64,000 nt of DNA from a virus, in the IMG/VR virus record IMGVR_UViG_3300030107_001446, positions 135,259 to 199,258 of that record. One strand, written 5' to 3'. Positions 7,063 through 43,919 of the stretch are shown piece after piece. The position numbers and the translations under genes were made by a program. The notes beneath the pieces are model-generated. The model had not been told where the DNA came from. It saw only the letters and a program-made list of their open reading frames with translations, and ran no database searches. Every line of letters starts with the position of its first letter. The stretch's first letter is position 1.

Positions 7063-7311
7063 GTGGAAACTCCAAAGTTTAACAGTGATGAGGAATTCAT
7101 CGCTTGGGCATTACAAAATATAAGTGAAGCAATAAAGAATCTATCCAGTAGAATAGAAGCTTTAGAGGGGGCAATAGGTAAAATGCCTCCCCCTGGTGCT
7201 GATATGATTAAGTATAAAGTCCCAGGTGATGACTCCTACTCTAATTTGAAAGAGTTATTTGATAATCTGTATAAGAGGATAAATACCTTAGAGAATAATA
7301 GTAAAACGTAG
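7063..7311 (+). CDS. hypothetical protein with short coiled coil
   Basis: 82 aa, GTG start; heptad segment ISEAIKNLSSRIEALE. Confidence 0.75.
   Translation: METPKFNSDEEFIAWALQNISEAIKNLSSRIEALEGAIGKMPPPGADMIKYKVPGDDSYSNLKELFDNLYKRINTLENNSKT
7279..7285 (+). promoter_or_regulatory. candidate T4-type late promoter
   Basis: ATAAATA 25 nt upstream of the GTG of the 1203-aa gene, embedded in the upstream CDS. Confidence 0.5.
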
Positions 7312-11634: not shown

Positions 11635-12069
11635 TTGGCACTAAATATAGGTAATATGCCATCGTATAGGTTCAGATCTGAAAAATATATCAGTAGAGGG
11701 TTTAAGGATTTAGCAGTCTCTTTTAAACCAAACCCTTCTACAGGAGATTTTGGTGTGGTCAAAAATGAAAACGCTATAAAACAGTCTGTCCGAAACATCA
11801 TATTAACAATGTTTGGTGAAAGACCTTTTCAATATGAAATTGGGTCTAGGGTTAAAGCACTATTGTTTGAGCCTTGGGATCCATTTAGTGCTGATAGTAT
11901 GAAAAGTGAAATTCGTAATGCTCTGGATAGATTAGAACCAAGAATCGAAGTTAACCAAATTAAGTTAAGGGATGATTCTGATATAAATTCCATCCAGGTT
12001 GGTATTGACTACACTATCGTGGGTCAAGAAGAAATACAAAACGTCGAATTTCTCTTAGAGAGAGCATAA
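11635..12069 (+). CDS. gp25: baseplate wedge subunit gp25
   Basis: FKDL..SF..NP...D...KNE.AIKQSVRNII.T..GERPF...GS....LFE and EPRI motifs; start is either TTG 11635 or ATG 11656. Confidence 0.93.
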   Translation: MALNIGNMPSYRFRSEKYISRGFKDLAVSFKPNPSTGDFGVVKNENAIKQSVRNIILTMFGERPFQYEIGSRVKALLFEPWDPFSADSMKSEIRNALDRLEPRIEVNQIKLRDDSDINSIQVGIDYTIVGQEEIQNVEFLLERA

Positions 12070-14174: not shown

Positions 14175-17100
14175 ATGACTCCGATAACCAAGAATATCAA
14201 CGTCTCTGATAGGGTCGAAAATCAGTTACCTGAATTTATACGCCAGGAAGACAGACAATTAGTCAACTTCCTATTTGAATACTATAAATCACAGGAAAAA
14301 ACTGGTAGACCATACGATATCCTCAACAACTTGATGAGGTATCTTGACCTTGACAAATACTCCTCAGAAGAGTTGTCAAGTAGCACGAGCTTGTTAAAAG
14401 ATATTGGGGTAGATGACACTAAGATAGAAATAGAGAGTATTAATGGATTCCAGACAAGAGATGGATCCATAATGGTTGATAATGAGATCATTTACTACGA
14501 GGGAGTCACTCGTGGACCTGATGTTATTATTACACCTGGTATTTCACTTCCACAGTTTAATAAGAAGAAGCAACAACTAGAAAACCCCTTCACATCGTTT
14601 GATGGTGTTGAAAGAGTCTTCCCATTAAGTTTTTTAGGTACTCCTATAGCACCTCCTAGTGCAGAGCACTTAATTGTAGTGACATACAACGATATGCTGA
14701 TTCCTGGATCAGAGTATACTGTTAATGGCACTAATATATCATTTACAAATCCACCTAGAGCAAGAACAGGTGCAGATGATTCAGAATTTACTCAAGTAGT
14801 ATATTTGGTTGGATATGCAGACCAAACAATCGTTACTGCTGACCAAATCCCATATCAAGAGTGGCAGAATACTCAAGTTTATCCATTAAGAGTTAATGGA
14901 CAGTCTTATACTCCAACTTCTGATATTGGTTTAATTATTAACAAGAATGGTAGGTTACAAACTCCTCAAGACGACTATACCCTCTTTGAAGACAAGGTTA
15001 TCTTCAAAAACCCAGTCGGTGCTGCTGATCTTATCCATATTAGGTCTGTTGAATATGTTGCTCCTGCATATGGGTCTGGAGCCTCAGCTATTGCTCAAGT
15101 TGATACTATAGGTCAGATTGAAGCAATCATTCCTAAGGATGGTGGTAAGAAGTATCGTCTAGATTTCGCTCCTAAGGTTGCTATAACCCATAAAGATGGT
15201 ATTAGTGCTACTGCAAAGTCCCTAGTTGGTGGTATTAAGGATATTAACCTTATAGATGGTGGACAAGGGTATTCTTCTTATAACCCACCTATCCCAGTAG
15301 TTGTAGCACCTGCAGATCCTAATGGATCCATTGCACAACTAAGTTTAACAGTTAATGATGTAACTGGAACAGTTGATAGCGTTACTATTACTAATAGTGG
15401 TAGTGGATATGACTTTATTCCCGCTATTTCCTTTAAGAATCCTTCTGGTGCTACTATAGGTGCACCTACTATTGACATAGAAGGTAGAGTTAACATAGGT
15501 AGCATCCCTGTTATCACTATGGGTAGTGGATATAGTAATCCACCTACAGTTTATATTGATGCTGCTCCAGATGGGGGTATCAATGCTCAGGCAGTCTCTA
15601 AAATCAACCAAGATGGTCAAGTATATGAGATTACCATTGTTAATAGGGGTAAAGGATACATTACACCTCCTAGAGTAAAGATTGTTGAGCCTATAGGTGC
15701 TCAAGTCCTCGATGTAACGGTTGCATCGGGAAGTGTTACAAATATTGAGATGTTAACAGGTGGTAGCGGTTATACAGACGCACCATCAGTCTACATAGTT
15801 GACAAAAGGGTTGATGGATATGGAGAACCAATTGGAGGTACTGGTGCAACAGCAGTTGCCACCATTTTTAATGGTGAAATCACCGATATCAACATTACTA
15901 ACTTTGGAACTGGTTATTCCGAGTCTGAACCCCCTCAAATCTATATTGCAGAACCTAAATCCGCTAGAGCATCGGTAGATGTAGGTTTTGACGAAGTAAC
16001 TGGATTCGACATCCTAGAAAAGGGCAGTGGATACTCTTCTTCTGCCTTTTTACAATGTTCTCGTGGTGTTTCTGGTCCTGTTAAGTATGATAACCTTCAT
16101 AATGAGATATATGCCACTGAAGCGAATTTAAGACAGTCTGATCACCATGCAGGTGCTGCTGTAGTCAATTTAGACACTTTATTCATCAAAGAAGTCTTCG
16201 ATAAGTTTAGAAGGCAGTATTTGCCGACTTTAGACATTGATTTTGCGTCAATTAACCCAGTTCAGGTAATTAAGAATATTACCGACTTCTATATCTCGAA
16301 AGGTACTAAATTATCGACTCAATACCTCTTCAAAATTCTTTTTGGTGAAGATGTTGACCTTTATTATCCAAAAGATGAAATAATCAGTCCATCTCATGCA
16401 ACTTGGGTTGTAGACACGGTTTTAAGAGCCGAATTGATGGAAGGAGACCCAAATAACCTAATTGACTCCCAAGTTAACCAATATGCCGATGATGTAGACC
16501 CTAATGTTACTGCTGCGTCTGCATTGATTGAAAACGTCATTACAATCATCGAAGGAACCGATACAATCTACGAATTGGCGATTTCTGAAGAAACCTTGGT
16601 TGGAAGCTTCATTATTCCTTATAAAACTCGTCTTGTTGAGCCATTAACGACCACTGGGCAAATAATCACTGTTGACTCTACTATTGGATGGCCTGAAAGA
16701 AATGGTACCATAAGAATAAATGATGAAGAAGAAGTACAATATAAAGAGAAATCTCTAAACCAATTCATTGAATGTACCAGAAGCAAAAACGGAATTGTTG
16801 AAGATTGGGATCCAGGAACAATAATTCAGTCCGATATTTACGTTTGGACTAACTTTGGAACAGCACAGCAATGTAAGTTAAGAATATTAGGAATTGCTGA
16901 AGCAGGTACTACAGTTCTTAATGATACAGGGTCATATTACCTTCAAGGAGATAAACTAAAGGTAGCAAACCTTGGATCTACTGCTGAGGAGTTAAGACTC
17001 CAATCTTGGTTATATAACGTCAAGAAACTTATCCAAGTTACCACTATAACTCCTGGTGGAGTTAATAACCAGACTGCGACTGTAGTTTGCGGTAACCCAC

Positions 17101-20100
17101 ATGGATTATTGGTTTCTGACCAAGTTACCATATATGGTGCTAACCCAGTTGTCTATAATGGCACATTTACGGTTACATCACGTATTGACCAATTTACTTT
17201 CTCTTATCAGATAGCAACACCTACAGAGATAATTCCTACTGGTAATATCCTCTTATCTGTTGACTTAAACAGAGGTAAGTCTGATGTAGTATCAATAAAC
17301 AAGGTTGTTAGTGAGTTTACAACTAACATACAGAATGCATTTTTCAACGATAACTATGTTTATGTTGCTGCTTCTGGTTTACCCAACTATAAGATTGGTC
17401 CTTTCACTGGGTCAGCTCTCATCCCAGGAAACCAAAGGAAACTCTTAAGATTCCCCAGAACAGTACAAACCGTCTCAGAAAGACAAGCAGTTGCTCCAGG
17501 TACTCCAATAGGTAGTTGGGTCAACGGTGTTTCTATATGGTCATATAAGTCTCCAGACTATATCCAGTATGGTCCTTTAACCTCTGTTAGTGTTACTAGC
17601 GTTGGTGAAGGATATGATGCAGGTGCTAAACCCAACGTAGAAATCACTGGGGGTGGTGGAACAGGTGCTACTGCTGAAGTTATAGTTAATGGTAGTCTTT
17701 CATCATTTGATGTTATAGAACAGGGTAGTGGATATACAGAATCACCTTTAGTATCAATCGTAGGTGGCGGTGGTATTGGTGCTACTGCTCAAGCAGTTAT
17801 TACAGGTGGTAGAGTAACAAGAATTTTAGTTGAGCAACCAGGTTCAGGTTATACGACTCAACCCCTAGTTTCTATTACTGGAGGTGGAGGCACTGGTGCG
17901 ACTGCTACTGCCAGTGTCCGTGGACCTATTAGTAGTGTTAGTATTACAAACTTCGGTAGTGGATATACTTCACTCCCTGACATTAAAGTTAACTCTGGTG
18001 AGAATGCTTTAGCACAACCAATCGTATTAAATGGTAGAATCGTTTCTATCGCTATTATCAACTCTGGTAATTCCTATACAACAGCACCTAATGTAATAAT
18101 CAATGGTGATGGATTTGGTGCAATCGCTAAAGCAACTATCGGTACAATTGGTGAAGATAAAGGACGTGTATTAAGCGTTTCTATCACTAACCGTGGAATT
18201 GGGTATACACAAGGTTTAACAACCGTCAGACTCGAAGCAGTGGGTCAATTAGCGTCATTCCAACCTACAGTTTACCAATGGAATAGAAACCTTCAATATG
18301 AATTGGTAGACAAGTTTGATGGTGCAAGTGGATATGTATTTACTGGATTTAACAACCAGTTTGGTGGTGAATATGCTCACCTATCAGATCCTAAAGAATT
18401 AAGATATGTTGTTGGTGATAACGTATTCTTAAATCCTGTTACACAGAATTTCCAAGAAGTTGCTTCTAACTATGACCACTCACCTATTATAGGTTGGGCA
18501 TTTGATGGAAACCCAATTTATGGTCCTTATGGTTACATTGACCCAACTGACCAGAATAGTGGTATCAGAAGGATGCGTACATCCTTCAAATTGAAGACTA
18601 ATGTTGTATTTGATGCAACTACTAATCCTAACCCTTCTAGGGTAGATGGACCTCCTATTTCAACATATGCTGCTGGAACATTTGTTGATGATTACTACTA
18701 TGATTTCCAATCTGGTGATTTAGACCAATATAATGGTCGTTTCTGTAAAACACCTGATTATCCAGATGGCACATATGCATACTTCGTAACTATCGATGCT
18801 AGTGACGCAGGTATTGCTGAATTCCCATATATCGTTGGACCTCAGTTTAACTCACTTCCAGATTCATGGAATATGAATCAAGCAGCAACACAGGAGAATA
18901 TTCCTGATGGAGTTGTCCGTTATAGAGATCCATATACTGATGTTGACATTGATATTGACCGTCAACCAAACCAGACTGCTGATGTCTTTACTACTGAGAT
19001 AGAAGGTTATCCTATCATCTTTGAAATACAAGACTCTAATAATGATGGTTTGATTGATGCTAATGAGCAACAAGAATTATTAGAGATGTCTGAAGAGGCA
19101 ACTCTACAAATATACGATTATTTCCCAAGAGTATCAGCAGAGTCTAGAGTTGATATTGAAGTTGAGACAACTACCCAATTTGAGAATGCTCAGATAGATG
19201 GATTCGTTGTTGAAAACCCAGGTGTTTCATATCAGGTAAATGACACCATATTCTTCGATAATGAAGGAACTGGTGGATTTGGTGCATCTGCTCTTATTGA
19301 ATCTGTTAAAGGACAGAATATAATTGGTTATCAAAAAGAAATGATTGGTGACCGTCCTTACGGTGTAATTACTACTGATATAGAGCATGAATTACGTCAA
19401 CAGGATGAAATCATTGTAAACTCACGTCCTGTTATTGATAATACTAATAAGACGTTTAGAGTTAAGGTTGTAGCGGGTGTTGAGAATATTGCTATAACTC
19501 AATCAGGTACTGGATATAATACAGATATTCCTCCAACATTTGAGTTAATTACTGCATCTGGACAAGATGCTGAGTTATCACTTGTATTAGAGAATACAGG
19601 TCAAGTTAATGCTGTTAATATCATTAACTCAGGTAATGGATACGATTCTGATAATCCTCCTCAGATTAGGGTATCACATCCACAACAATTCAAGAAAACA
19701 AGGTATTGGTTAGCTGAATATCAAGAAGCAACAGGTATAGTTAGTATCAATGATATTGTAACCACTGAAGAGCGTTATACTTATATTTGCGGTAGCATCA
19801 CTGAGACAGATGGTGATATGGCAGCATTCCTTGCCAAGTTTGATGATTTAGGTCAACTTGTTTGGGAAAGAAACCTTCTTCCTCAAAATGCAGGTCAGAA
19901 GAAAGCAGAATTCATTAAGATTCTAGTTGACGCAGTTCCAGAGAATGACCTCATATATGTTGTTGGACATACTTACGATCCAAACAATTCAGCATATAAT
20001 CCTGATATATGGTTAGGTAAGTATGAATCTGGATTTAATAATGCTAATGCACCTGATGGTATTCTTAAATGGCAGAAAGCGATTGCAGGTATCAGTGGTA

Positions 20101-35100: not shown

Positions 35101-38100
35101 GTAATTCTACTGAGCACACATATCCACGTCCTAATGTTGACCCATCATGGAATAATTCTCTAAGGATTGTTGATGATGGTGTATCACGTCATACTCCAAC
35201 AGATGCTTCTTATACTGCTACAACTGGAGTCCTAACATTAACAGTACCTAATCATGGTTGGTCTAATGGTCAGTATATTAGATTAGAAGATTATGCATTA
35301 GATTTAACTTGCACCATGGATGATGGTAGTGAGAATCATGCATATCCTAGAGGCACAGATCCTATTAGTAATAAGTGGTTAGAAATTTCTAACGTAACTG
35401 CATCTACATTTGATATTAATGTAGGCACTACACCTTCTGTCCAGTATACTCCTGCTGATGCTTCTTATGACCCATATTCAGGTCATATGGAATTGAATAT
35501 TGGTGCTCACCCACTTAAGGTTGGTCAAAGTGTTAAACTTGCTGATGGTGCTGTTACCTTTAGTTGTGACATGGATATGAATGCATCTAACCATGCATAT
35601 CCAAGGACAACTGTTGACACATTTACTCCAACAGCAGGAGCATATGATGGCACAACTGGTTATCTAACATTAACTCTTAATGGTCATGGATTTGATAACG
35701 GATCATTAATTAAGATTGCAGATAATGCTCTTACTGCTACCTGTGAAATGGATGGTAATTCATCAGGTAAGACATATCCAAGATCAACAGATCCTATTAG
35801 TGGAAAATGGAAACCTGTAGAGAATGCAACTGAAAATACATTTGATATTTTTGTTGGTAAGACAGAATTCAAGAGTTTCGATCCACAGCAAGTAGATTAT
35901 AATCCTGCTACAGGTAATATGGTAATCACTGTTGGTCCTGACCACGGTATTACAACTGCACATAGTGTTTACATTAATCGTGAATCAATGTGCTTCACTT
36001 GTGCACAAGATGGTCATGGAAGTGACCACTTCTATCCACGTCCTAATGGTAGTGGTGGTGCATCTGGTGATGACCCTGCATATCAAGAGGCTGTTGCTGT
36101 AACTGCTGTTGATGATAGCACTATAACAGTTAATGTTAACCCATCACCTTCTGGAGCATCTAATCATGCTCATATCTTCAAACCTGCTGTAGGTTTAACT
36201 CCACAGAATGTGACATATAGTGGTGTATCTGGTGTGATGACTGTTACCTATGCAAGTCATGGCATGATAACAGGTGAGCAGATTATGTTTGAGGATAATT
36301 CCTTAATCTTCACATGTGGTAAAGATGACCATGCTACTGAGCATGCTTATCCAAGACACGGTGACCCTGCAAGCAACAGATGGTTAACAATTACAAGAAT
36401 TGATGACAATAGATTCACTGTTAAAGTTTTAGATGAAACTCCTTCTACTAACACTTCTGCTCATACATTCAAGTATGCTAAAGCAGGTGCAATGAAGAGA
36501 GGATCTATCAGAGCAGGTGGATCATTTACACATACATTTACAACATTCGCATCAGGTGGTGTATCTCATAAGAGAGATAGAGCATATGACCATTCTATAG
36601 AAATTAAGAAAGTTGGTCATGGTGAATATACTGCTACAGGTGCAACATATAATGCTGAGACAGGTGTCCTACAATTAACAATTAATGGTCATCCATTTGC
36701 TAATGGTAACATGATTAAGTTGAAGCCTAATTCACTAATCATGACTTGTGATATGGATAACAATGCTACTAAGCACTCTTATCCTAGAAAGACAGATTTT
36801 GCTTATGATAGATGGTTAGAAATTTCCAACAAGCAAACAAATACTATTGATGTTAACGTTGGTAAAACACCTCGTGCTAACTACCTAGTTTCTGCTGCCA
36901 CATTTGACCCAACATCAGGTGACATGGAACTTACTATTGGTAAGCATGGATATCATGGTGGCACAACACATACAGTAACTAATGGTACCTATGATGCTAT
37001 AACTGGTAAGATGGTTATCACAGTTCCTGATCATGGATTCATTATTGGCGATAGAGTTAAGTTTGTAGATAATTCAATTTCATTCAAGTGTGGTATGGAT
37101 GGATATGATGTTGTTAAATCTTATCCAAGACCAACTGACCCTGCACATAACACATGGTTAGAAATTGATGATATAACACTTCATACATTCTCTATTAATG
37201 TTGGTACATCACCTAAGACAACTCATAACGTAACTAACGCTAATTACAATCCTACCAGTGGTGTAATGGAATTAACCATTGGATCACATAACTTGGATGT
37301 TGGTGATAGTATCAAACTTAAGCCAAATTCATTAACATTTACTTGTGATTATAATGGTGATGGTCAGACAACTCAGAAGACATATCCTCGCTCATCTGGT
37401 GCTGCTACTGCAAACGGTAAAGACTATGCTTATGATGCAGCATTGGTTATTACTGCTAAGACAGGAACATCAATCACAGTTAACGTTAACGGTGGTCAAG
37501 GTGCTATTACTGACGTAACTACTCACACATGGGCTGGTGGAACATCAGCAGGTGCTGTTATGTCTGGTGGTGGTTATGCACATCAATTCTGGTCTGCTGC
37601 TGCAAACGGACTTCAGAGAGCAAACGAATCAGTTTACATTGAGAATGAGTCATTAGTATTCAAGTGTAATAATGATGGTTATGCTACTGAGCACAAGTAT
37701 CCACGTGCTAATGGTCAAGGTGGTGCTACTGCTGATGACCCATATTATGATACTTCAGTTCCTATAGTTTCTGTAGGAGATGAAACTATTACAGTTAACG
37801 TTGGTAAATCTTCAGATACATCAACTCATCTATTTGTAAGGTCTGAAAATGCATTCGATGTTTCTGGTGCATCCTTCGTACCTGGCTCAGGTGAATTAAC
37901 AATCACAATGCCTAGTCATCCATTCACCTCAGGTGATAAGGTTATGCTTAAGGATCAAGGATTCACATTCACTTGTCAAGAAGATAATGACCAAACAACT
38001 CATTCATATCCTAGAGCATCAGACCCTGCTTCAAATAATACTTGGTTGACAGTTACTGTTGTAGATGCATCTAACTTTAAAGTTAACGTTGGTACTTCTT

Positions 38101-41100
38101 CTAACGTTACAACTCACACATGGGTATCATCATTACCTGGTGCTGTTATAAGAGGTGTAATTAGAGGTGGTGGAGTTTATGCTCATACCTTCGATAGTTT
38201 CGTTGATGGTGGAGTACAATGGAAGAATTCTACTATTAGTCTTGACGTTGGTGAGTCACCAGCTAAAGGATATGGTGTTAGTGGTGCATCCTTTGTACCT
38301 GCCACAGGTCTATTGACAATGACAATCGGCAACCATCAGCTTAAGACTGGTATGTATGCCAAGATTGCTAACAAGTCAATGGTATTCCGTTGCGACCAAG
38401 ACTCACAGCAAACTGACCACGTATATCCACGTCCTAATGGATTCAGTGGTGCTACAGGTAATGACCCTGCATACAATAATAGAGTAGAAATTACTTCTGT
38501 ATCTGCTGATAGTATTACAGTTGATGTTGGTACATCTTCTAACACTACAACTCATTATTTCCAAAACGCTAATAACGTTTACACACCAACTTTTGCATCA
38601 TATGACCCAACATCAGGTTTAATGAATATCAGCATTCCTGGTGACACTAAAAACGTTACAGGTGCTGCATACAACCCAACTTCTGGTACATTAGAATTAA
38701 CAATCGGTGCTCATACTTTAACTACAGATGATGTAATTAAGTTGAAGCCTAATTCATTAACATTCACTTGTGATTATGGTGGAGATGGAAACGTAACTCA
38801 GAAGACATATCCTCGTGCACAAGGTGCATCTACTTCTGATGGAAAAGATTATGCATATGATACTGCATTAGCAATTACTGCTGTAGACCAAGCAGGTGGC
38901 ACAATCACAGTTAACGTTAACGGTGGTCAGGGTGCTATCACTGATACTACTACCCATACATTCCAATCTGCACTTGCAGGTGCTGTTATCGTTGGTAACG
39001 GTTTCATAGATGGTGAGTATATTAAGATTGCTGATGATGCATTTAAGTTTACTTGTGATAAGGATAATAACGTTACATATCACGATTATCCAAGAGCATC
39101 AGATCCATCAAGTGGAAGATGGTTGAAGATTTCTAACTGTAATGTTGATACATTCGATGTCCAAGTATTACAAAACGTACCTTCCACAAACACAACTGAC
39201 CATACATTTGTATCTGCTGTAGCATCTAGTATTCAGAGGTCTGTTGTTACTATCGGTGGTGAGTATAATCATACATTCGTATCTGCTGTTAGTGGTGGTG
39301 TAACTGCGGGTGGAAACTATACACATACATTTGCATCTGCTAAGCCAAATTCACTACACAGACAGAGTGGTAAGATTACAGTTAATGTAAATGTTGCTGC
39401 TACTGCTGACCTATATGACCATACATTTGTTAGTGCAATTCCTGGTGCTGTTATAGCAGGTGGTAATTATATGCACTCATTTGTATCTGCTGCCACAGGT
39501 GGAATTGAGAAAGCAAATTCATATATCTTGATAAAAGATGGTGCTCTTAACTTCACATGTGATTTAGATGATTATGAAACTGAGCACTTATATCCTAGAG
39601 ATACAGACCATGCAAGTAATGAATGGTTGGCAGTATCTAATGTCACTGTGGATACATTTGATGTCCAAGTATTGAAAGGAGTCCCATCATCATTCTTAGG
39701 TAAGCATACATTTGTATCTTGTGCTGAAGGTGGTATATGGAAGCAAGACGGTACTATTAAGATTAACGTTGGACCTTCACCTGCGGGTAATACATATGCT
39801 CACAGATTTGTAAGTGCTAACTCTGGTGCTTTAATACAGGGTGGTAACTATAGACATAACTTTGTATCTGCTGCATCTGGATGCATTAAGGTAACAAATA
39901 GTGGTGCTACATTAACACCTACTGATGCATACTACGTCCCAACAACAGGTAAGTTAACTCTAACTGTTGCAGGTCATAGTTTAACAACTGATGATACTAT
40001 TGAAATTGATACTAACGGATTAACATTCACATGTAGTCAAGACCAGAATGCAACTAACCACACATATCCTCGTGTGACAGACTATGCTGACGGTAAGAAA
40101 TTACATGTCCAAATGTCTAACTCATGGGCATGGCCTACTCAAGATTTGAAATACTTCAGGTCACGTCAGGTATCACAAAACTACACAGGTACAGAAGGTG
40201 CTCCAGTAGAAACTGAGATTACACAACTCATACAATTTGTAACTGATGGACTTACTAATCCTAACACAGTTGCAAGTAGGTCTTACATCATGCCTACTGT
40301 ATGGCCTGTTAAGTATACTCCAGAAGTTGTAGTAAGAGATCTTACTATTCAATATGATACAGCACAGGGTGGACAAGGTAACCAAGGTACATGGAATCAA
40401 ACATGTCAAAACGTTGCTTCAACAATCGCTACTGTTGCTGATATCTACATTCAAACAATAGCAGAGGCAGCAAATAATAATGTTAACTACTTAACTTCAA
40501 ACGTTACTAAGACATTCCCATTCAATAGCAACACAATATATCAAGATGGCACATGCTATAACGTAACATCTGCTATTGATACGTTGTTTGATATTATGAA
40601 GCATACACTTGGTGCTGGATCAAATAACTCCAAGAATATCGCTAACATGATACTCTTCAATCAGCAAGCAATAGCAGGAAGAGCATTTGGTGAGACACAG
40701 GTTAACTGGCCTACAACTAATCTAACTATTGACTTTGCTAATGATGTCCTTGCAGCAGTACGTTATGACTTAGTAACTGGTGGTAACTCAGGTGCATTTG
40801 AATTAGCACAACAGTGGTTTGACGGTGAAGGTAACTTCATAGCATTCCCAACCGTAGTTAGGACACACATCTTATATTGTTTAACAAGAGTTAGAGAATA
40901 TATTAAGAGTGTTATGTATCTTGTTGGTGAAGATGCTGTATGGAATAATTACGATGTATATGTCCCAGAAGGAAGACTTGAGTGGAATCAAGAAGCAGTT
41001 GAATTTATGGTTGACTCTTCACTTAACCCACTTGAATTTGCTTTAGAGAGAGGAGAATTCCCAACAGAAGCAAGAGTCCAGTGGATTGCATCTAGTGATG

Positions 41101-43919
41101 CTGTTAACCGTGTTACAAGGAATGAAGTAGGTTGGGATTATAACACCGACCCTGCATTGGTTACTCTAACTCCTGAAGTTGAAGTTGGATATGACCGTGC
41201 TGAATATAGAATAAGAATTAATCAACCAAACAACTTCCGTCGTGGTGATGTGTTAAGTTACATTCCTACTGGTGGTCAAGCTCTTAGTGGATTGACAAAT
41301 CAGGAATATTTCTACTGTCTAACTGCTACTGCTCAGTGGTTTGAAATAGGTGCTTCCTATATCCACGATGGTAGATTTAGATTACTACAAGTAGATACAT
41401 CTAACTCAAACACACAGGTATTCCAAGTAATGCAGAGAAGTGGTATTTCAAGGACTGCTCCTACATACCCAGTTGATATGTCCGATACTCCAATACAAGG
41501 TGGATTCAATGCTGCTGACGTTGTATATGGGTCAACATCTGGATCTAGTGCTGAGGTATCAAATGTCCTTACTAATGAAGGTAAGATTTATAAGATGTAT
41601 ACACACTATGATTTAACTGGTGTATCACAATCGGCTGGCACATACGAAAACTTCATTAATGGTGAGACTGTCCAAGTCCAAGGTGCAACTTCTAATACTG
41701 GTTTTGTATTACAGACTGCTGCAACAGATGATGACACAGGTGAATCTATCCTTAAACTTAACTCCATCGCAGGTGCTATTAACTTGAATGATGTTGTTGA
41801 GGGTGTAGATAGTGGCACAACTGCAACAGTTGGTACTCCATCTGAAAGATTCTTACTTAACGTTACATCTGGTGCATTCTCAGCAGGTGACTGGTTCTTC
41901 GAGGAAGGTGCTAACACTGAAGCATACATGGATGCTTATGTTAATAAGTCTGGTTCTCTAACTGGTAATGAAGGTGGTAGAATTACAATCGATGTTGAGA
42001 CCATTGATAGTCAGTGGACTCCTGGTGATATTATCTACGGTAGTGTTACTAACTATATTCTTTCAGTTAAGGGTATTAGTGGTACACAAATTCAGTTGAA
42101 TCAGTGGTTACACGGTAGAGTAACCTATGAATTAGACCTAGGCGTACCTATCGTTGATACTGGTATCTCTGATACATTCAACGTTGGTGACGAGGTTACA
42201 CTCCTACAAGGTACCGTCCAGAAGAATCCAGGTTGGATTGCTACTGTAACCAAGTATATTAATGGTCTAGAATTAGATCCAGGCGAGCCTAACTATGGTA
42301 TTCATAAAGTTTGGATTGGTAACTTAGTACCTGTTGGAGCAGGTGCTGATATCTCTGAGGTAACTCAAGGAATTAATACTATTGGTAAGATTCAATTAGG
42401 GTCTAATTTCCCAACAATATACGCACAGTGCACAAACGTAACTACAACAAATTACTCATCTTATGCAAGAGTAGTTGCTATAGAGCAAGCAGGTATTACT
42501 GCTGAAATTTGGGTAGAGAATGCAGTTGGTGATTTTGTTGATAATATGTCACTTGTATCTGACTTTGGATGGGGTGGTGCTGTTACTTCTGCTAGGACAC
42601 TAGAGGGTAGAGTTGACAGATACTTCAGAGGATTTGATGGAAATCAAACAATATTTGACTTAACCATTTCTAATGGTGAAGCATACTTCCCAGATCCAGC
42701 TGGACATCTATTAGTATTCGTTAATGGTATTCTACAACCTCCAGGTGGTGCTAACTCTTATGTTGCATACTCAGATAAGATTCAGTTTGCTGAGCCTCCT
42801 GAGATTGGATCACAATTCGTTGGATACTATGTTGGTAAATTACGTCAGTTAGATGATATCAGTTATGAGTTTGACTCATTGAGATCTTCCTTCAACCTTA
42901 AGCGTCAAGGTTTATTCTACTCCTTAACACTGACTGAAGGTGTATCTTCTAACGTTATACGTCCTGAGAATAACATTATCGTATCACTTAACGGTATTAT
43001 TCAGGAACCAGGTCTAGCATACGAGATTGTTGGTTCACGATTAATCTTCGCTGAAGTCCCACGTGCGGGATCAACCTTCGTTGGTTTCTCATATATTGGT
43101 AGTGATGCTGACGTTATCGCAGCAACAGTCGTACCTCCTGTTGAGGCAGGTGACCAACTCTTTATCGAGGGTGAGGAATTTAATCGTGAAGTTGCTCTAA
43201 TTGAATCTTCCAACTCCTTGATTACTTTTGAGTATACAGGATCAGTTAAGGGTAGAAATGCTGCTGCTATCGCTCAGATAACCTCTGGTAAGATAACAGG
43301 TGCTAACCTAACCAACTCTGGTGATGGTTATACTTCACGTCCTAACGTTGACGTTATATCTTCCTCTGGATTTGATTCTCGCATCAAGGCATTGATGGGT
43401 ATTACACGCATAGATGTTAAGACATCTGGTGTTGGATACTCTATACCAAATGTTGCTATTGATAACGTAGTTCCAGATGATTTCACACCTCCAGAAGGTG
43501 CACCAATTAACGGTGGATTTGATGTATTCGCAGGTGAAGGCACAGATGCAGGTGGTGGAGGTACCACAATCGAATCTGGTACAATAGCAATTCTTCAGGA
43601 TCCAGTTAACGTTACTGTTAACCAAGGTCAGAATGCAGCATTCACAGTTGTCTCTAGTGTAACTAACGACCAGACAATGAATTATCAGTGGCAGAAGAAG
43701 GAGTATGGTACACAGACTTGGAGCAACATCATTGGTGCTAACCAAGCAACATACAATACTTCTATCACACAACAAGCAGATGATGGTGACGAATATAGAG
43801 TCGCTATCACAGCAGCAGGTGCAATCCCAGTTTACTCACTCTCTGCTACATTGAGTGTCCAGACTGGTGCTACTATCTTGAGTAACTTCACTCCAGACCT
43901 TATCTTTGACGACAACTAA
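14175..43919 (+). CDS. gp7: giant multidomain baseplate wedge protein, gp7-like (9914 aa)
   Basis: Single stop-free ORF of 29,745 nt between gp6 and gp8. N-terminus VSD.V..QLPEFI....F...YY.SQE and FY.SKGT..S..YLFK.LF match cyanophage gp7-like proteins. Contains a split YHYH-type domain, beta-propeller-like region, LamG-like domains, CBM-like modules, helical repeats, a 30-copy repeat array and a C-terminal Ig-like domain. Confidence 0.85.
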   Translation: MTPITKNINVSDRVENQLPEFIRQEDRQLVNFLFEYYKSQEKTGRPYDILNNLMRYLDLDKYSSEELSSSTSLLKDIGVDDTKIEIESINGFQTRDGSIMVDNEIIYYEGVTRGPDVIITPGISLPQFNKKKQQLENPFTSFDGVERVFPLSFLGTPIAPPSAEHLIVVTYNDMLIPGSEYTVNGTNISFTNPPRARTGADDSEFTQVVYLVGYADQTIVTADQIPYQEWQNTQVYPLRVNGQSYTPTSDIGLIINKNGRLQTPQDDYTLFEDKVIFKNPVGAADLIHIRSVEYVAPAYGSGASAIAQVDTIGQIEAIIPKDGGKKYRLDFAPKVAITHKDGISATAKSLVGGIKDINLIDGGQGYSSYNPPIPVVVAPADPNGSIAQLSLTVNDVTGTVDSVTITNSGSGYDFIPAISFKNPSGATIGAPTIDIEGRVNIGSIPVITMGSGYSNPPTVYIDAAPDGGINAQAVSKINQDGQVYEITIVNRGKGYITPPRVKIVEPIGAQVLDVTVASGSVTNIEMLTGGSGYTDAPSVYIVDKRVDGYGEPIGGTGATAVATIFNGEITDINITNFGTGYSESEPPQIYIAEPKSARASVDVGFDEVTGFDILEKGSGYSSSAFLQCSRGVSGPVKYDNLHNEIYATEANLRQSDHHAGAAVVNLDTLFIKEVFDKFRRQYLPTLDIDFASINPVQVIKNITDFYISKGTKLSTQYLFKILFGEDVDLYYPKDEIISPSHATWVVDTVLRAELMEGDPNNLIDSQVNQYADDVDPNVTAASALIENVITIIEGTDTIYELAISEETLVGSFIIPYKTRLVEPLTTTGQIITVDSTIGWPERNGTIRINDEEEVQYKEKSLNQFIECTRSKNGIVEDWDPGTIIQSDIYVWTNFGTAQQCKLRILGIAEAGTTVLNDTGSYYLQGDKLKVANLGSTAEELRLQSWLYNVKKLIQVTTITPGGVNNQTATVVCGNPHGLLVSDQVTIYGANPVVYNGTFTVTSRIDQFTFSYQIATPTEIIPTGNILLSVDLNRGKSDVVSINKVVSEFTTNIQNAFFNDNYVYVAASGLPNYKIGPFTGSALIPGNQRKLLRFPRTVQTVSERQAVAPGTPIGSWVNGVSIWSYKSPDYIQYGPLTSVSVTSVGEGYDAGAKPNVEITGGGGTGATAEVIVNGSLSSFDVIEQGSGYTESPLVSIVGGGGIGATAQAVITGGRVTRILVEQPGSGYTTQPLVSITGGGGTGATATASVRGPISSVSITNFGSGYTSLPDIKVNSGENALAQPIVLNGRIVSIAIINSGNSYTTAPNVIINGDGFGAIAKATIGTIGEDKGRVLSVSITNRGIGYTQGLTTVRLEAVGQLASFQPTVYQWNRNLQYELVDKFDGASGYVFTGFNNQFGGEYAHLSDPKELRYVVGDNVFLNPVTQNFQEVASNYDHSPIIGWAFDGNPIYGPYGYIDPTDQNSGIRRMRTSFKLKTNVVFDATTNPNPSRVDGPPISTYAAGTFVDDYYYDFQSGDLDQYNGRFCKTPDYPDGTYAYFVTIDASDAGIAEFPYIVGPQFNSLPDSWNMNQAATQENIPDGVVRYRDPYTDVDIDIDRQPNQTADVFTTEIEGYPIIFEIQDSNNDGLIDANEQQELLEMSEEATLQIYDYFPRVSAESRVDIEVETTTQFENAQIDGFVVENPGVSYQVNDTIFFDNEGTGGFGASALIESVKGQNIIGYQKEMIGDRPYGVITTDIEHELRQQDEIIVNSRPVIDNTNKTFRVKVVAGVENIAITQSGTGYNTDIPPTFELITASGQDAELSLVLENTGQVNAVNIINSGNGYDSDNPPQIRVSHPQQFKKTRYWLAEYQEATGIVSINDIVTTEERYTYICGSITETDGDMAAFLAKFDDLGQLVWERNLLPQNAGQKKAEFIKILVDAVPENDLIYVVGHTYDPNNSAYNPDIWLGKYESGFNNANAPDGILKWQKAIAGISGTTRRDWVTSLALDQEGRIYLAGYTDSNSIDPNDMWIIQCNLDGDLVEKRKIASATDSEMINQIQWISDDRFFMVGQNDENDDCIFGVFWFDGANLEIEYIRQIPTIGGYVRNPKFTIDEYDDVILVWDVYNGAAQKYDKVQINKFPLSTASTSWTWSKTVTISGDIDAIRHAGVNVDKFGNYTLVTDVIEDQNQRYAIYHYIKYDGNVIKESKVDDTTSIGFQAITHSVDNSGDVIMVINRQQSDQIAAYRFNDDTDLDYDFTKQNKAAMTFYSPSDASYDSSFYKYGTGALKLSAVNPVSLPNLNLESKEWSFRAWLSMNSTAHSTDHKPLLWDILPVAGDSIQVELDGDTNSANYEKVIIYVNSVQVATSLLATNWTAFAGASWVHVTFQKREESLGLYQYEVFINGALVCNFQSTSDISVGSAVLCGKSAGPTSNNTFIGWVDDYVIDDVAPYLSAYSVPSAEIEITTSNSDSALVKFDREHTKRGSYALSGLDNYTQLDFTDNEITTTWVDVGLSAISPWIVGAGGLQILDMSQVVSNLNPGTYTFTANKFEYGTKTSTIPSPLGKKLIIEPEVISKFYIRDALYQKIDNVMEFTFSQDIKLTKGSILQQFNSSGVTQAYGTIVKVPEGTLLNPGYGNKYQVGKIYGTFNNTDRYRTVANDINQIEGTYFNTEEEESPWQANTAYTAGDRVYADKKIYEVQATGTSGTISLSHTSGVASDGLLNWAFIDDAGKFTVDLTQHPYPRPQWVGMDMPEWLPDRLYVEGQRVWWKLNVYEVAVGGAGVAGTNAPVHDTGDASDGGVTWTHVSTEEAISVYSRLMGYDMGNNYTVQIMEVHPGSVYIPDDVVSLNAGNITLAEDEKSVEISGFASVKKIQVTARLEKDIIRTNAVRTEFVYCTSNTAHMFKAGDILFTEGFSTAQFNGSFFIDQVIGTREFTFAIRATASSDPAFINNALGGVNIYAKHPTLEFTRNHQYVFDLSDSSNFGYYLSFSQDNQYKLEYSFNNIERNGTPGIATTPAPTVQFSVLGEVTNISYYFDPSRTGADSPVGTNSFIDVIKTPFDGRFTISEVPTDTSFKFPLLKEPERTNAEVGEDYLGNDYSYYSTTSVRAVGPINTIQLVSPGGFYQKLPIISDIASFRQIEKCVVVDGGTEYAPGVYYDVPIAGDGEGAKCTVTVEVDEEIGSGTITGCAVTDPGKGYTTASIDIDAIPGILGATLAGSGGSVNVVIPSEGSGASVFLTGTNIGKIKRLKNNEFGFGYSHDYTLKPEITFPVNLQLFNTSILSQITITDPGSGYSSTPAVVIEGGGGSGAEAEAIIKNNRLSEIIIKNPGAGYSSEPTVTLKSEFNYVVNLDLNYLQFNFPHGITSGAEVTFRAENVGSTTGELPKPSTAGLTSLVANQVYYAIAGTAAGLEPDQLRFGLTKASALAGSYITFLTQGSGRQVLLTEVFGGKATAVVETSRFLEGEDVYQGSNVETATAMGTVSTNTGWQIGPKILKIVDYTGDWAVGESVTGTISKASGVIDNFSIARGVLNIGSLTKTPGRFIDDVGKPSEIVQKIQDSFFYQNFSYVVQSQIPITEWKSQVLENNHPAGFNMFGQLQLTGGKDVSGRKIGTEFTKKVNINNYSNVNQITSFGAAQPIYTDYNNTEVLFRKKRLTSSEEILTSIVKKLDNFEDQFDGIKKAFPITVEGEQVIVKQDQLMITLNGVIQAPGISYQVVGGDLVFSEPPRPPSKVNYRIIGVTPTPIYRIALYSPGGNANYGIFPTIGQQVQGEFSDAVGTVIDSGTNHIDVINIVGGPFQLNEEIVRGEIFSALVETVTQVNSDTIFEFGEAITNLEGDTAYVEETNVDTDGNVTDRLVVSKTSGTPRFETGIYDLRLNEYIYSASSKIAGQITYTAPYSDPINDEVVDELIINRGTTFFGLLFERLLSLTNPNIILDNISQSSITPTKLYDSSNRINADFLDFEEVRTTEVTYSQLANGAFADGDIIRNKKTFYGNPISVFHGNAANRFLDGGRNIANNKQEIIDFAEASIAIDYPDYYFPSDVITNAWSRFKDAYRMIQKNKALIVGMAFDDMKTQFPSSSIPSDAKCKRDIEYFVDAVSIDMYAGGNRYTRKFCQQYFNEAGSFTYINAQATETKWAYEKARDRMKVAIANGYSGTISAANSGDSWVAYQDLTITADPSPTNPYGTAGTNTSNTDSDNCTDVQSAIETLHEIVDETLTNGSLTELPVESGGTYSPHQEKCRRDLGYFIDAISNDLKTGGNYQTVLFTRSFFDASGTPLTNGIVGEEAEAVHAFTTAGTLMHRAINNLMYWKDLSGVGYNLNDPTTYSGGVAPANTYDANYASGNNQDINNCANVKSYIDTLKAIATTAMTAGNLTNVNNLASITDGTFQDGETIRTTKFAYKNRSRGLFALGDTIKGITSGAVFEAIGANAGLKWIFASNVTGTFQDEEWITNSTLTATNCTQSVIVKKAELVGDKSVYKPSNGLLTQTASEDFAFGTGDFTIQSWIRPAANVGTQYLFDFRRLSAAQGLNIRMDGQGLKVYNGTTLMVSGSGDFATTGTWYHIAIVRNSGVTQAYVNGAQIGSNYVDTNDYLYNAPHIGSDFNQSSHWTGHIDNLCIKKGVCDFITGFTPPTQVDFAEDNIVLGIDGEGPFIASTTEVWATYTGQRTSSTTAKRVDYDGLALIASDIDTGRKELRDCAEIIDLNGAWIAEEAVGRMKAAFVDFTIRGDDPGNNSYGGTNLCIRDTKDYILGALIKDLQEGGDFHTIYTARTYLTTSGKLDHITDEILQSLYTWNEVFKLCETVITTTSTDLSGEYSTRLRIPNNFSSPASSTVTDEIKLLGDNLLKVVAPNDQRFREGGFQLWKNRDYIAEEVAGYIQNKYQQEINEVTYDFLEMPGYGQPYCERDIKQFILPAVMADLVTGGTYQTEAVIDKYLDSQNKVIHVDEELNPMLDAFEYCKMLCMKAVNNLLLSSGEAAAELGVPTWVQEEYYAPQWTARAAYRDDTIVLDTEGYPQAGTRQNNDRYLDAADLIWKNRHVIAKECVSTMNDLSKYENLNIPGGHVNCEDDVLDMIEAMVHDLRFDCNEKTYDAAALYIETENNSLKHIEGEWEASITVVKILRDITSLIMRNAFGRDYEEGGSPDQKPVESYEQNPRIDLYKNCGDAIDGNIRYIAEQAVAAGLVQFPNLNIPGGPINCVHDVTDILRALVFNIKYGGNNWLQYSTEFYATYSGNLDHVTNAPTETNWIMNKARDFAIRAMKGQIITNEAGHVVDQRFYDAVPRPTTTMVTTSVLTGAPVTDNYNNLVTRSFKFGEDKISTTDTGTGIIPDEDAVFSVVTKLPSSPIDCCLFEAGGGTSGVWFGIRDGGTWLRLRAGNGTNSYTSGASYTADTGLAMLDLQISNLTQYFDDGDHELVWQIVIGGNQTTGAGSVTLWIDGQQIGQATTPGGGWTGLTGASGLFANTQWAGFGVSNGSLVAGEAATINTFTVNVGPAPTIAYDITAADYDSSTGDLILNVGNHNHTPGTFLRLISNSLTFTCDQDNHASNHTYPRSGDPAGNTAVEVLDVGRTEHTATAASYDPNSGIMNMTIEQHGMTASTSHTAKDAAYDPDSGVLTITLDDHGFKTGDQVKIHNGSLIFTCAQDNHATKHGYPRQKDPAGDQWLLIEEVTPNTFKVNVGATPKVEYNVSDAVYDQNDGELTLDIGQHRFVGASNHVATFAEYNADKGTLKLTVSGHGVIVGDQIQIMENSMTFTCSMDNHYTNHVYPRSTDPCVGQWLDVVESDIPGGTFTVNVGQSPIVGWDPSDATYNSETGHLTLEIGNHSLAVGTHVKLSQESLNFTCSMDDHATIHSYPRDTDPTHNEPIQILATTATSITVPVGTTPTVQYTPTNATFTPADGLLELTLDRKHTFRPATIHNISGGEYNGSTGMMRVTVADHGFSNGDFVKIADGGITFSCTMDGNASNHAYPRASDPYSNKWLAVRNASKDSFDVYVGRTPELPFTITDATFVPSTGHMRVWIGDHDLVAGDYVRMTEESIGFTCLLDNNISKKYYPRSSGSNYVGNGGADPFWNKRIQIAYAGMPLTATTGTSYNPTTGVMSISTDAPHGMSDGDEVKIATDSLVFTCLEDNNQTNHTYPRATDPFNDRWMRVSNTSTYTFDVQVLSYAPSTNSTTHTFVQANVNGITKKDGTITLDVGASSDTTAHTYTATPGLTPTAITHNPVTGIMDITVEGHKLMAGDFIKIADNSLTFTCAMDNHASDHVYPRPADPASGSWLKVLTATTDTFTVQVLKDIPQSNTTTHLFKSAVAECITKSVIKTGGVYDHTYVTSSVGALRHAGDSVRLAPDALTFRCDADGQASDHVYPRSATTQHTPSDVVYNPNTGNLKFTVNNHGFLPHSYVKIADNSLTFTCAKDDNATGHLYPRPTDPVSGKWVMINDVSANTFTVEVLDVIPSTNTTVHTFVSATSNCITHKKDHFYDTNIPIYEVGMTSSTPSNVSYNPTLGEMVVTVNNTLTGCNKITPDSATYYPATGILRIQMNGHPVKNGQMVWLQDGAFTFRCDEDGQASDHAYPRPSDPASNKFLKAFNVGTNTIDVNVGYFEGQGAISNQTTHVFQSGAMNGVWHANSYVMFEENAVTFQCTKDNNATNHSYPRPSDPSWNKWLPVFNTSSGQFSVKVGKSGINDIYDHTFVSFATDGLKTQTGTIKLDVGNGQITNPTTHVFQSANANSLIGGGEYTHDFKSTNSTYTVTDANYLPATGIMTLTIPNHGFQDGESIKISNDSLVFTCLQDAGGSEHSYPRYTDPVADKWIKIHNCTDDTFDVQVLENIPSTNQTLHTFKRASANGVTRAVLATGGNYTHKFIAPAQLTPTNAVYDPSTGVMTVTVTKHGLKNGTRIKVEDGFVTFTCGQDSNQTNHSYPRASDPFSDEWMKVSNVTTDTFDIQVLFNIPSTNTTPHTFVSGKPKSITVATLMKGNDSIKIADNGLTFTCSKDGNSTEHTYPRPNVDPSWNNSLRIVDDGVSRHTPTDASYTATTGVLTLTVPNHGWSNGQYIRLEDYALDLTCTMDDGSENHAYPRGTDPISNKWLEISNVTASTFDINVGTTPSVQYTPADASYDPYSGHMELNIGAHPLKVGQSVKLADGAVTFSCDMDMNASNHAYPRTTVDTFTPTAGAYDGTTGYLTLTLNGHGFDNGSLIKIADNALTATCEMDGNSSGKTYPRSTDPISGKWKPVENATENTFDIFVGKTEFKSFDPQQVDYNPATGNMVITVGPDHGITTAHSVYINRESMCFTCAQDGHGSDHFYPRPNGSGGASGDDPAYQEAVAVTAVDDSTITVNVNPSPSGASNHAHIFKPAVGLTPQNVTYSGVSGVMTVTYASHGMITGEQIMFEDNSLIFTCGKDDHATEHAYPRHGDPASNRWLTITRIDDNRFTVKVLDETPSTNTSAHTFKYAKAGAMKRGSIRAGGSFTHTFTTFASGGVSHKRDRAYDHSIEIKKVGHGEYTATGATYNAETGVLQLTINGHPFANGNMIKLKPNSLIMTCDMDNNATKHSYPRKTDFAYDRWLEISNKQTNTIDVNVGKTPRANYLVSAATFDPTSGDMELTIGKHGYHGGTTHTVTNGTYDAITGKMVITVPDHGFIIGDRVKFVDNSISFKCGMDGYDVVKSYPRPTDPAHNTWLEIDDITLHTFSINVGTSPKTTHNVTNANYNPTSGVMELTIGSHNLDVGDSIKLKPNSLTFTCDYNGDGQTTQKTYPRSSGAATANGKDYAYDAALVITAKTGTSITVNVNGGQGAITDVTTHTWAGGTSAGAVMSGGGYAHQFWSAAANGLQRANESVYIENESLVFKCNNDGYATEHKYPRANGQGGATADDPYYDTSVPIVSVGDETITVNVGKSSDTSTHLFVRSENAFDVSGASFVPGSGELTITMPSHPFTSGDKVMLKDQGFTFTCQEDNDQTTHSYPRASDPASNNTWLTVTVVDASNFKVNVGTSSNVTTHTWVSSLPGAVIRGVIRGGGVYAHTFDSFVDGGVQWKNSTISLDVGESPAKGYGVSGASFVPATGLLTMTIGNHQLKTGMYAKIANKSMVFRCDQDSQQTDHVYPRPNGFSGATGNDPAYNNRVEITSVSADSITVDVGTSSNTTTHYFQNANNVYTPTFASYDPTSGLMNISIPGDTKNVTGAAYNPTSGTLELTIGAHTLTTDDVIKLKPNSLTFTCDYGGDGNVTQKTYPRAQGASTSDGKDYAYDTALAITAVDQAGGTITVNVNGGQGAITDTTTHTFQSALAGAVIVGNGFIDGEYIKIADDAFKFTCDKDNNVTYHDYPRASDPSSGRWLKISNCNVDTFDVQVLQNVPSTNTTDHTFVSAVASSIQRSVVTIGGEYNHTFVSAVSGGVTAGGNYTHTFASAKPNSLHRQSGKITVNVNVAATADLYDHTFVSAIPGAVIAGGNYMHSFVSAATGGIEKANSYILIKDGALNFTCDLDDYETEHLYPRDTDHASNEWLAVSNVTVDTFDVQVLKGVPSSFLGKHTFVSCAEGGIWKQDGTIKINVGPSPAGNTYAHRFVSANSGALIQGGNYRHNFVSAASGCIKVTNSGATLTPTDAYYVPTTGKLTLTVAGHSLTTDDTIEIDTNGLTFTCSQDQNATNHTYPRVTDYADGKKLHVQMSNSWAWPTQDLKYFRSRQVSQNYTGTEGAPVETEITQLIQFVTDGLTNPNTVASRSYIMPTVWPVKYTPEVVVRDLTIQYDTAQGGQGNQGTWNQTCQNVASTIATVADIYIQTIAEAANNNVNYLTSNVTKTFPFNSNTIYQDGTCYNVTSAIDTLFDIMKHTLGAGSNNSKNIANMILFNQQAIAGRAFGETQVNWPTTNLTIDFANDVLAAVRYDLVTGGNSGAFELAQQWFDGEGNFIAFPTVVRTHILYCLTRVREYIKSVMYLVGEDAVWNNYDVYVPEGRLEWNQEAVEFMVDSSLNPLEFALERGEFPTEARVQWIASSDAVNRVTRNEVGWDYNTDPALVTLTPEVEVGYDRAEYRIRINQPNNFRRGDVLSYIPTGGQALSGLTNQEYFYCLTATAQWFEIGASYIHDGRFRLLQVDTSNSNTQVFQVMQRSGISRTAPTYPVDMSDTPIQGGFNAADVVYGSTSGSSAEVSNVLTNEGKIYKMYTHYDLTGVSQSAGTYENFINGETVQVQGATSNTGFVLQTAATDDDTGESILKLNSIAGAINLNDVVEGVDSGTTATVGTPSERFLLNVTSGAFSAGDWFFEEGANTEAYMDAYVNKSGSLTGNEGGRITIDVETIDSQWTPGDIIYGSVTNYILSVKGISGTQIQLNQWLHGRVTYELDLGVPIVDTGISDTFNVGDEVTLLQGTVQKNPGWIATVTKYINGLELDPGEPNYGIHKVWIGNLVPVGAGADISEVTQGINTIGKIQLGSNFPTIYAQCTNVTTTNYSSYARVVAIEQAGITAEIWVENAVGDFVDNMSLVSDFGWGGAVTSARTLEGRVDRYFRGFDGNQTIFDLTISNGEAYFPDPAGHLLVFVNGILQPPGGANSYVAYSDKIQFAEPPEIGSQFVGYYVGKLRQLDDISYEFDSLRSSFNLKRQGLFYSLTLTEGVSSNVIRPENNIIVSLNGIIQEPGLAYEIVGSRLIFAEVPRAGSTFVGFSYIGSDADVIAATVVPPVEAGDQLFIEGEEFNREVALIESSNSLITFEYTGSVKGRNAAAIAQITSGKITGANLTNSGDGYTSRPNVDVISSSGFDSRIKALMGITRIDVKTSGVGYSIPNVAIDNVVPDDFTPPEGAPINGGFDVFAGEGTDAGGGGTTIESGTIAILQDPVNVTVNQGQNAAFTVVSSVTNDQTMNYQWQKKEYGTQTWSNIIGANQATYNTSITQQADDGDEYRVAITAAGAIPVYSLSATLSVQTGATILSNFTPDLIFDDN
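30600..40110 (+). repeat. array of 30 intragenic protein repeats (F-T-C-x2-D-x5-H-x-Y-P-R-x2-D-P core)
   Basis: I counted 30 C...YPR cores in the translation, from FTCDQDNHASNHTYPRSGDP to FTCSQDQNATNHTYPRVTDY; boundaries approximate. Confidence 0.9.

Follow-up and report, generated by a model that had tools for sequence, protein, structure and literature searches.

A megadalton gp7-like protein, probably of the baseplate, with a 30-unit beta-barrel array in an uncultivated T4-like marine cyanophage

In the T4 baseplate, one copy of gp7, a protein of 1032 amino acids (aa), joins two copies of gp6 in each of the six wedges. Much larger versions are known from marine cyanophages. Genes of more than 15,000 nucleotides (nt) fused to gp7 homologues were reported in P-SSM2 and P-SSM4, and were proposed to encode baseplate-anchored fibre subunits (Sullivan et al. 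2005, PMC1079782). One member of this family, S-SZBM1_208 (6619 aa, 724 kDa), has been identified in purified virions, where mass spectrometry detected 71 of its peptides (PMC9146016). Homologues in the same genomic slot are annotated in GenBank for P-TIM40 (gp099, 7351 aa) and P-RSM6 (CPXG_00128, 8573 aa); P-SSM2 orf113, P-SSM4 orf080 (gp7) and PHROG 701 belong to the same family. Here we analyse a 64,000-nt stretch of viral DNA (the window), positions 135,259 to 199,258 of IMG/VR record IMGVR_UViG_3300030107_001446, which contains a single open reading frame (ORF) of 9914 aa at 14175..43919. The window is the final 64 kb of a 199,258-bp record rated 100% complete. DNA and protein matches place the source phage in the T4-like marine cyanomyoviruses (Kyanoviridae), with the Prochlorococcus phages P-TIM40 and P-RSM6 as nearest isolates. 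The giant ORF spans 29,745 nt and takes up 46% of the window, or 15% of the genome as a whole.

This ORF is likely to encode the orthologue of gp7 (the baseplate wedge initiator) in an uncultivated T4-like marine cyanomyovirus. Inserted domains and an added C-terminal stretch have made it far larger, and we consider it likely that the core sits in the wedge and that the rest projects as an adhesive appendage. An earlier note, made from the letters of the window, had described one uninterrupted frame encoding a gp7-like protein about ten times the size of T4 gp7, with no intein, in which a conserved wedge core carries adhesion-type domains. The frame and its size were confirmed, and the gp7-like reading, with its adhesion-type domains, is supported. 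No internal stop was present in the translated ORF, GC content is even along it (0.36–0.41), no intein or homing-endonuclease family was found in Pfam scans of the protein, and the ratio to T4 gp7 is 9.6. The gp7 relationship is supported by synteny, by colinear sequence motifs and by the resemblance of the modelled fold to that of solved gp7. Pfam recognizes YHYH, LamG and SBBP domains in the protein.

The gene order in the window is PAAR protein, gp6, giant ORF, 662-aa YHYH structural protein, gp10-like protein, 646-aa wedge-type protein and gp8-like protein. This agrees with the order gp6-gp7-gp8 of T4. The layout is identical in P-TIM40 and P-RSM6, with gp25 immediately upstream of gp6. 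Among the ORFs of the window, T4 gp7 matched only the giant one by BLASTP. Two motifs were detected in pairwise comparison: T4 gp7 residues 733–758 correspond to giant residues 704–729 (motif 1, E 1e-3), and residues 866–897 correspond to giant residues 3550–3581 (motif 2, E 8e-3), in colinear order. Family profiles built from about 155–175 members recovered both against T4 gp7, with an E value of 2.6e-6 and a probability of 88.6% for motif 1, and 7e-5 and 63% for motif 2. The matched stretches are short, from 26 to 110 aa. The two motifs are separated by about 110 residues in T4 gp7 and by about 2,800 residues in the giant protein, so the gp7 core of the latter is split by a very large insertion. 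The families phrog_2885, phrog_26741 and phrog_17744 provide a further link, being matched by T4 gp7 aa 646–759 and strongly by giant aa 666–835. The family phrog_701, annotated as virion structural protein, covers giant aa 7–3829 with 5614 bits and the C-terminus with 1877 bits. The segment leading into motif 2, aa 3473–3560 (24591–24854), gave tblastn matches in Methylophilales phages and in one Pelagibacter phage, which shows that the core, in this part, is not confined to cyanophages.

The fold of the core was modelled with AlphaFold2 (AF2) over aa 600–1100. The mean predicted local distance difference test score (pLDDT) was 67, the underlying alignment of 21 sequences limiting model quality. 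Among 350,542 PDB chains, the best Foldseek match of this model was Klebsiella phage KP1 gp7 (chain 9f4a_A0, E 4.4e-4), and the T4 gp7 chain 5iv5_BJ was matched with an E value of 7.2e-3. VIA-align superimposed giant aa 744–916 on gp7 765–851, just downstream of motif 1, with a Z score of 9.0 and a root-mean-square deviation of 4.4 over 86 aligned residues. Small beta-barrels of the core also gave VIA Z scores of 10–11 with phage tail-tip domains, with the phi92 endosialidase barrel and with the E1 FCCH barrel. Single-sequence searches were less informative: phmmer against the PDB returned nothing useful for aa 1–1500 or aa 3600–3800 and a weak gp7 match (E 0.48) for aa 640–860, and hhalign found no match between the N-terminal 120 aa of the giant protein and T4 gp7. 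Taken together, the modelled fold offers evidence of moderate strength for a gp7-like core.

Like T4 gp7 (PDB 5IV5; relative in 9F4A), the giant protein thus follows gp6, carries the two motifs in colinear order, shares PHROG links and matches in fold. It differs in that the N-terminal 640 residues of the T4 protein have no counterpart, in that YHYH, propeller, LamG and CBM-like domains are inserted between the motifs, and in the presence of about 6,200 extra residues after the core.

The giant protein is also a member of the cyanophage giant gp7 family. Family members occupy the slot between gp6 and gp10/gp8, carry YHYH, LamG and helical-repeat domains together with the same repeat module, and are colinear with the window protein over their N-terminal 3,900–5,260 aa or so (55–61% identity) and their C-terminal 1,270–1,730 aa (46–52%). 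Over the first ~3,900 aa of the window protein, identity is 60–61% with P-RSM6, and it is likewise 60–61% over the first ~4,360 aa with P-TIM40. S-SZBM1_208 (P0049) aligns with aa 8–5260 at 54.8% and with aa 8636–9911 at 51.5%. Since these two blocks are contiguous in S-SZBM1, the giant protein corresponds to a standard cyanophage gp7 plus one array insertion of 3.4 thousand residues (kaa), aa 5261–8635 (nt 29955–40079). End-to-end colinear chains were obtained with P0049, P-RSM6, P-TIM40 and two further homologues (P0002 and P0062). In homologue searches that listed the best 120–150 matches, the N-terminus was matched by at least 347 clusters of 5.5–8 kaa, and by 4865 representatives overall. 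The window protein differs from the rest of the family in its length and in its 30 array units; P-RSM6 has 15 and P-TIM40 has 5, and at the equivalent place S-SZBM1 has none. Its clade is uncultivated, and the complete members measure 9458–9922 aa.

The earlier note had counted 30 copies in the repeat array, and a regular expression for the motif LTFTC..D....H.YPR indeed found exactly 30, between aa 5517 and 8631, at a spacing of 59–168 aa. One Cys, the Tyr-Pro-Arg triplet and an Asp are nearly invariant among the units. The closest N-terminal metagenome relatives have 7 copies, and close orthologues have 24–29. The AF2 model of four units (aa 6991–7340, 113 aligned sequences) reached a pLDDT of 88.7 and is all-beta, with consecutive barrels of about 85 residues. 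When compared with predicted structures, this model recovered the module in cyanophage proteins such as the "baseplate wedge initiator" of S-SSM7 (E near 1e-22), and the barrel module is present in 335 cyanophage records. Against the PDB, Foldseek gave nothing at E<=0.001 for the four-unit model (best E 0.067), and the best VIA scores, 6.1 for a head-to-tail chain of phage FCWL1 and 5.8–5.9 for the phi92 endosialidase and E1 FCCH barrels, fall in the range (Z<=6.1) that the tool's own guide describes as non-specific.

With the endosialidase barrels of phi92 (4HIZ) and K1F and with the E1 FCCH barrel, the giant protein shares a small six-stranded barrel of about 80 residues. There is no significant sequence similarity and the Pfam E1_FCCH match is faint; the Cys/Asp/His/Tyr-Pro-Arg signature of the array is, as far as tested, not a feature of these barrels. 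One barrel of the core, aa 949–1032 (17019–17270), matches the phi92 endosialidase and ubiquitin-E1 FCCH barrels with VIA Z scores of 10–11; the resemblance of the array units to these folds is weak. Speculatively, the array may have grown by repeated copying of such a core barrel. Judging from the conserved residues, each unit could possibly hold a metal or ligand site. Four other giants of 5.9–6.6 kaa (P0123, P0124, P0128 and P0137, on metagenome contigs of 158–258 kb) carry 18–24 copies of the module, have unrelated N-termini and are without the gp7 core. Because the module sits in giants with unrelated N-termini, the array behaves as a mobile cassette among giant fibre-like proteins.

Selection was estimated as the ratio of non-synonymous to synonymous substitution (dN/dS, Nei-Gojobori) between the window protein and three orthologues. 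The core region is the most conserved part (89–91% identity among four orthologues, dN/dS 0.07–0.09). The LamG domains (64–75%, dN/dS 0.22–0.34) and the array (64–72% with insertions and deletions of whole units, dN/dS 0.26–0.28) are the most variable parts; LamG domain 1 in particular (64–75%, dN/dS 0.27–0.34) is among the most variable parts. Since dN/dS lies between 0.07 and 0.34 in all regions, the whole frame is under purifying selection.

From these data we propose how the protein may work. By analogy with T4, each of the six wedges would incorporate the N-terminal segment (aa 1–110) together with the two pieces of the core (aa 620–1100 and about 3550–3700), and the YHYH, propeller, LamG and CBM-like insertions would lie along the rim of the baseplate. 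What is left, some 6,200 residues with the helical repeats, the string of 30 barrels, the conserved C-terminal region and the Ig-like end, would project as a single-chain beads-on-a-string appendage. Such an appendage could provide weak, multivalent adhesion to the cyanobacterial surface, ahead of the committed receptor step, and the copy number of the array (0 to 30 across relatives) would set its reach. This proposal extends the 2005 suggestion of a baseplate-anchored fibre subunit (PMC1079782).

Several points weigh against this reading. The Pfam family PF23786 (Baseplate_wedge) appears at the expected place, aa 695–736, with 18.5 bits for a cut-off of 27, although precomputed annotation places it in many full-length homologues. 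The likeness to T4 gp7 depends on short motifs and on a model of medium confidence (pLDDT 67). Because PF23786 falls below its cut-off and the matched stretches are short, we regard the assignment as gp7, supported by synteny, sequence, PHROG links and structure, as well supported but not proven. As modelled, the array resembles no solved structure significantly (Foldseek E 0.067, VIA Z<=6.1), so any function given to it is tentative. The conserved C-terminal region could fold back onto the baseplate and not form a free tip. As for the window protein itself, its presence in virions, its copy number and its uncleaved state are predictions, the virion detection being that of the homologue S-SZBM1_208. 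Finally, the adhesive role is suggested by domain types only, and among these the CBM5/12 and Ig-like domains are below threshold in Pfam.

The extension could be architectural and not adhesive, wrapping or enlarging the baseplate or serving as spacer or stabiliser, with the C-terminal region docked on baseplate neighbours and the array tolerated as a spacer. Such a role would fit the conservation of both ends of the protein around a middle that varies in copy number, and the GxGY modules that the N- and C-terminal regions have in common with the neighbouring gp8-like and 646-aa proteins. It would also fit the Cys/Asp/His/YPR core conserved in each array unit, as expected for a motif that stabilises the fold. 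However, domains of the LamG, CBM-like, propeller and Ig-like types typically serve in binding to surfaces. The LamG domains and the array evolve fastest, as expected for host-facing surfaces, and the array module turns up again in giant fibre-like proteins whose N-termini differ. We consider an architectural role unlikely.

A second alternative to the adhesive gp7 extension is that the product is a precursor cleaved during or after assembly, or is encoded by separate ORFs in some phages, so that a gp7-sized core would reside in the wedge while the C-terminal thousands of residues would form a separate fibre protein. Cleavage had already been raised in the earlier note, and some PHROG families do have internal limits (phrog_19630 covers aa 8–1277, phrog_18802 starts at aa 3377), and the Tara ORF P0122 (6538 aa, 59.6% identity, 30 motif copies) is colinear with aa 3375–9913, starting close to the second of these limits. 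Yet the start of P0122, at a non-ATG codon 379 nt inside its contig, fits a gene-calling or assembly break, and 318 of the 359 phage records that match aa 3200–3560 cover at least 80% of this query in one place, each listed match being a single annotated feature; a gene commonly split near aa 3376 is thereby ruled out. Moreover, motif 2 lies beyond the putative boundary, where a cut would split the core, and no protease or intein domain was found in Pfam scans of the giant protein. A precursor appears quite improbable to us.

The third alternative, a mis-assembled or expanded array or two genes fused by sequencing error, would owe its appeal to the metagenomic origin of a record with 30 repeats, and is so improbable that it can be set aside. 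At the DNA level the array copies are only 60–76% identical (a short pair reaches 87% over 60 nt at best), and no tandem repeat was reported by Tandem Repeats Finder, which makes collapse or expansion of the array in short-read assembly unlikely. Sixteen other, independent IMG/VR contigs from several metagenomes contain relatives of units 16–19 at 70–99% identity. Ten of these records were checked: four have complete frames, of 9914 (99% identical), 9792, 9922 and 9458 aa, and the frames of the other six run off the contig ends. The purifying selection on the array and the even GC content of the ORF agree with these observations. The earlier note had named an array artefact as what would undo its claim; the array is not an assembly artefact, and the ORF is real.

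The earlier suggestion that the protein may be among the longest phage proteins is plausible, and its novelty is weakened. Of the 340 database homologues with 2000 aa or more that were retrieved, the window protein comes first in length and a protein of 7974 aa second; the longest among the isolates examined has 8573 aa. The window protein is not the longest of its family, as the 9922-aa frame (contig G003) rules this out. Giant gp7 fusions were described in 2005, homologues of 6619, 7351 and 8573 aa are on record, and at least four other contigs carry frames of 9458–9922 aa. The family, its link to gp7 and its presence in virions are thus already in the literature, and the window protein founds no new category. 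What is new is modest: an uncultivated clade at 9.5–9.9 kaa (about 1 MDa), in which a single inserted array, built from a beta-barrel module that is widespread among cyanophages, accounts for the excess length. Our literature searches turned up neither a cryo-electron microscopy paper on the baseplate of a marine cyanomyovirus nor one that discusses proteins as long as this.

A bolder view, which we put forward only tentatively, is that the array represents a so far uncharacterised kind of phage appendage: a single-chain string of barrels about 100 nm long, whose conserved Cys/Asp/His/Tyr-Pro-Arg sites would bind either a metal or some ligand of the host. Each baseplate would then bear six of these megadalton tentacles for multivalent capture tunable by copy number (0–30 units), unlike the trimeric fibres of known myoviruses. 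Concerning the latter, gp12, the T4 fibre protein compared, matches the ORF at 58848 and not the giant ORF, and the term "tail fiber" attached to phrog_5342 and phrog_4527 on the giant protein is an annotation name only.

The features of the giant protein and of its neighbours are collected in Table 1. Several domains read from the letters in the earlier note were recovered by Pfam, namely the propeller-like region at about 19700–20830 and the LamG domains near 20940 and 27520. No Pfam match at E<=1 was obtained for the LamG domain claimed near 30050. The CBM5/12 domain stands as a weak match only, being below its cut-off. The Ig-like tip is moderately supported: phmmer found a tandem-Ig phage tail protein, whereas I-set (16 bits), Ig_3 and V-set were all sub-threshold in Pfam. 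The insertion at aa 111–619 is missing from most distant relatives; in most of the representatives listed, residues ~110–570 align to giant aa 619–1075. No informative match to PDB sequences was found for the helical scaffold. The C-terminal region is colinear with the C-termini of S-SZBM1 (51.5%), P-RSM6 (48%) and P-TIM40 (46%). A Phycobilisome match (PF00502, 27.5 bits for a cut-off of 22.2) at aa 4034–4102 (26274–26480) is probably spurious, since no single stretch passes and phmmer against the PDB found no phycobiliprotein; the same family is precomputed in many homologues too, and the match is a curious one for a cyanophage.

Table 1. Coordinates of the giant ORF, its regions and the neighbouring genes in the window.
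Feature	Residues (aa)	Window position (nt)	Strand	Evidence and remarks
Giant ORF, giant gp7 (baseplate wedge initiator) homologue	1–9914	14175..43919	+	ATG start, 1.076 MDa, pI 4.7
Conserved N-terminal segment	1–110	14175..14504	+	83–88% identity in four close orthologues; adjoins core in most relatives
Subfamily-specific insertion	111–619	14505..16031	+	~42-aa GxGY repeats (repeat family D7); modules common to phrog_460 and phrog_438
gp7 core region	620–1100	16032..17474	+	Contains motif 1 (aa 704–729, nt 16284–16361)
YHYH domain	1396–1542	18360..18800	+	Pfam PF14240, E 2e-28, 100 bits, cut-off 25
Beta-propeller-like region	1843–2219	19701..20831	+	Pfam SBBP repeat 27.6 bits, cut-off 20.5; NCBIfam delta-60 repeat weak
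LamG/ConA-like domain 1	2273–2425	20991..21449	+	Pfam Laminin_G_3 30.4 bits, cut-off 27.6
CBM5/12-like motif (weak)	2658–2685	22146..22229	+	Pfam CBM_5_12 19.2 bits, cut-off 26.2, E 1.3e-3
gp7 core motif 2	3550–3581	24822..24917	+	Matches T4 gp7 866–897; 86–90% identity among orthologues
Helical-repeat scaffold	3981–5260	26115..29954	+	phrog_4527, phrog_5342 (both annotated as tail-fibre families)
LamG domain 2, inside helical scaffold	4474–4600	27594–27974	+	Laminin_G_3, E 2e-17
Array of 30 small beta-barrel units	5467–8660	30573..40154	+	Each unit with C-x2-4-D/N-x3-8-H/K-x0-2-YPR
Conserved C-terminal region	8636–9794	40080..43556	+	Helical modules, then GxGY-type repeats; phrog_701 profile positions 5344–6123
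C-terminal Ig-like domain	9795–9887	43557..43835	+	phmmer against PDB: phage tail protein 9c2d_S, tandem Ig, E 1.4e-4
gp6 baseplate wedge subunit	699 in all	12069..14168	+	phrog_219 E 6e-202; T4 gp6 BLASTP E 1e-39
Virion structural protein	662 in all	43928–45916		phrog_25852
gp10-like protein		45941–47419	+	phrog_677; T4 gp10 BLASTP match
Wedge-type protein	646 in all	47416–49356	+	phrog_22827, phrog_708 "baseplate wedge subunit"
gp8-like protein		49391–50926	+	phrog_438; T4 gp8 BLASTP match
phrog_358 (DUF4815-type) protein	2444 in all	50930–58264
ORF running off the window	>1717	58848–63998		T4 gp12 (short tail fibre) weak match, E 4.7e-4

From 7.3 to 64 kb, nearly all of the window encodes oversized virion proteins. 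The YHYH-type segment of the 662-aa protein (aa 250–377) matches the same PHROG profiles as giant aa ~1400–1550, so the two proteins share a domain module. The 646-aa protein shares GxGY modules with the giant protein and is not matched by T4 gp7; its counterpart in S-SZBM1 may be S-SZBM1_205 (615 aa), which is labelled "baseplate wedge initiator".

T4-like cyanophages are among the most abundant viruses of the ocean, and how they find their dilute hosts is poorly understood. A gene that takes up 15% of a phage genome must pay its way. The comparison presented here gives a testable picture of the giant cyanophage gp7, with a conserved core, fast-evolving LamG domains and an array of 0 to 30 units, and marks out a clade with versions of about 1 MDa for structural work.

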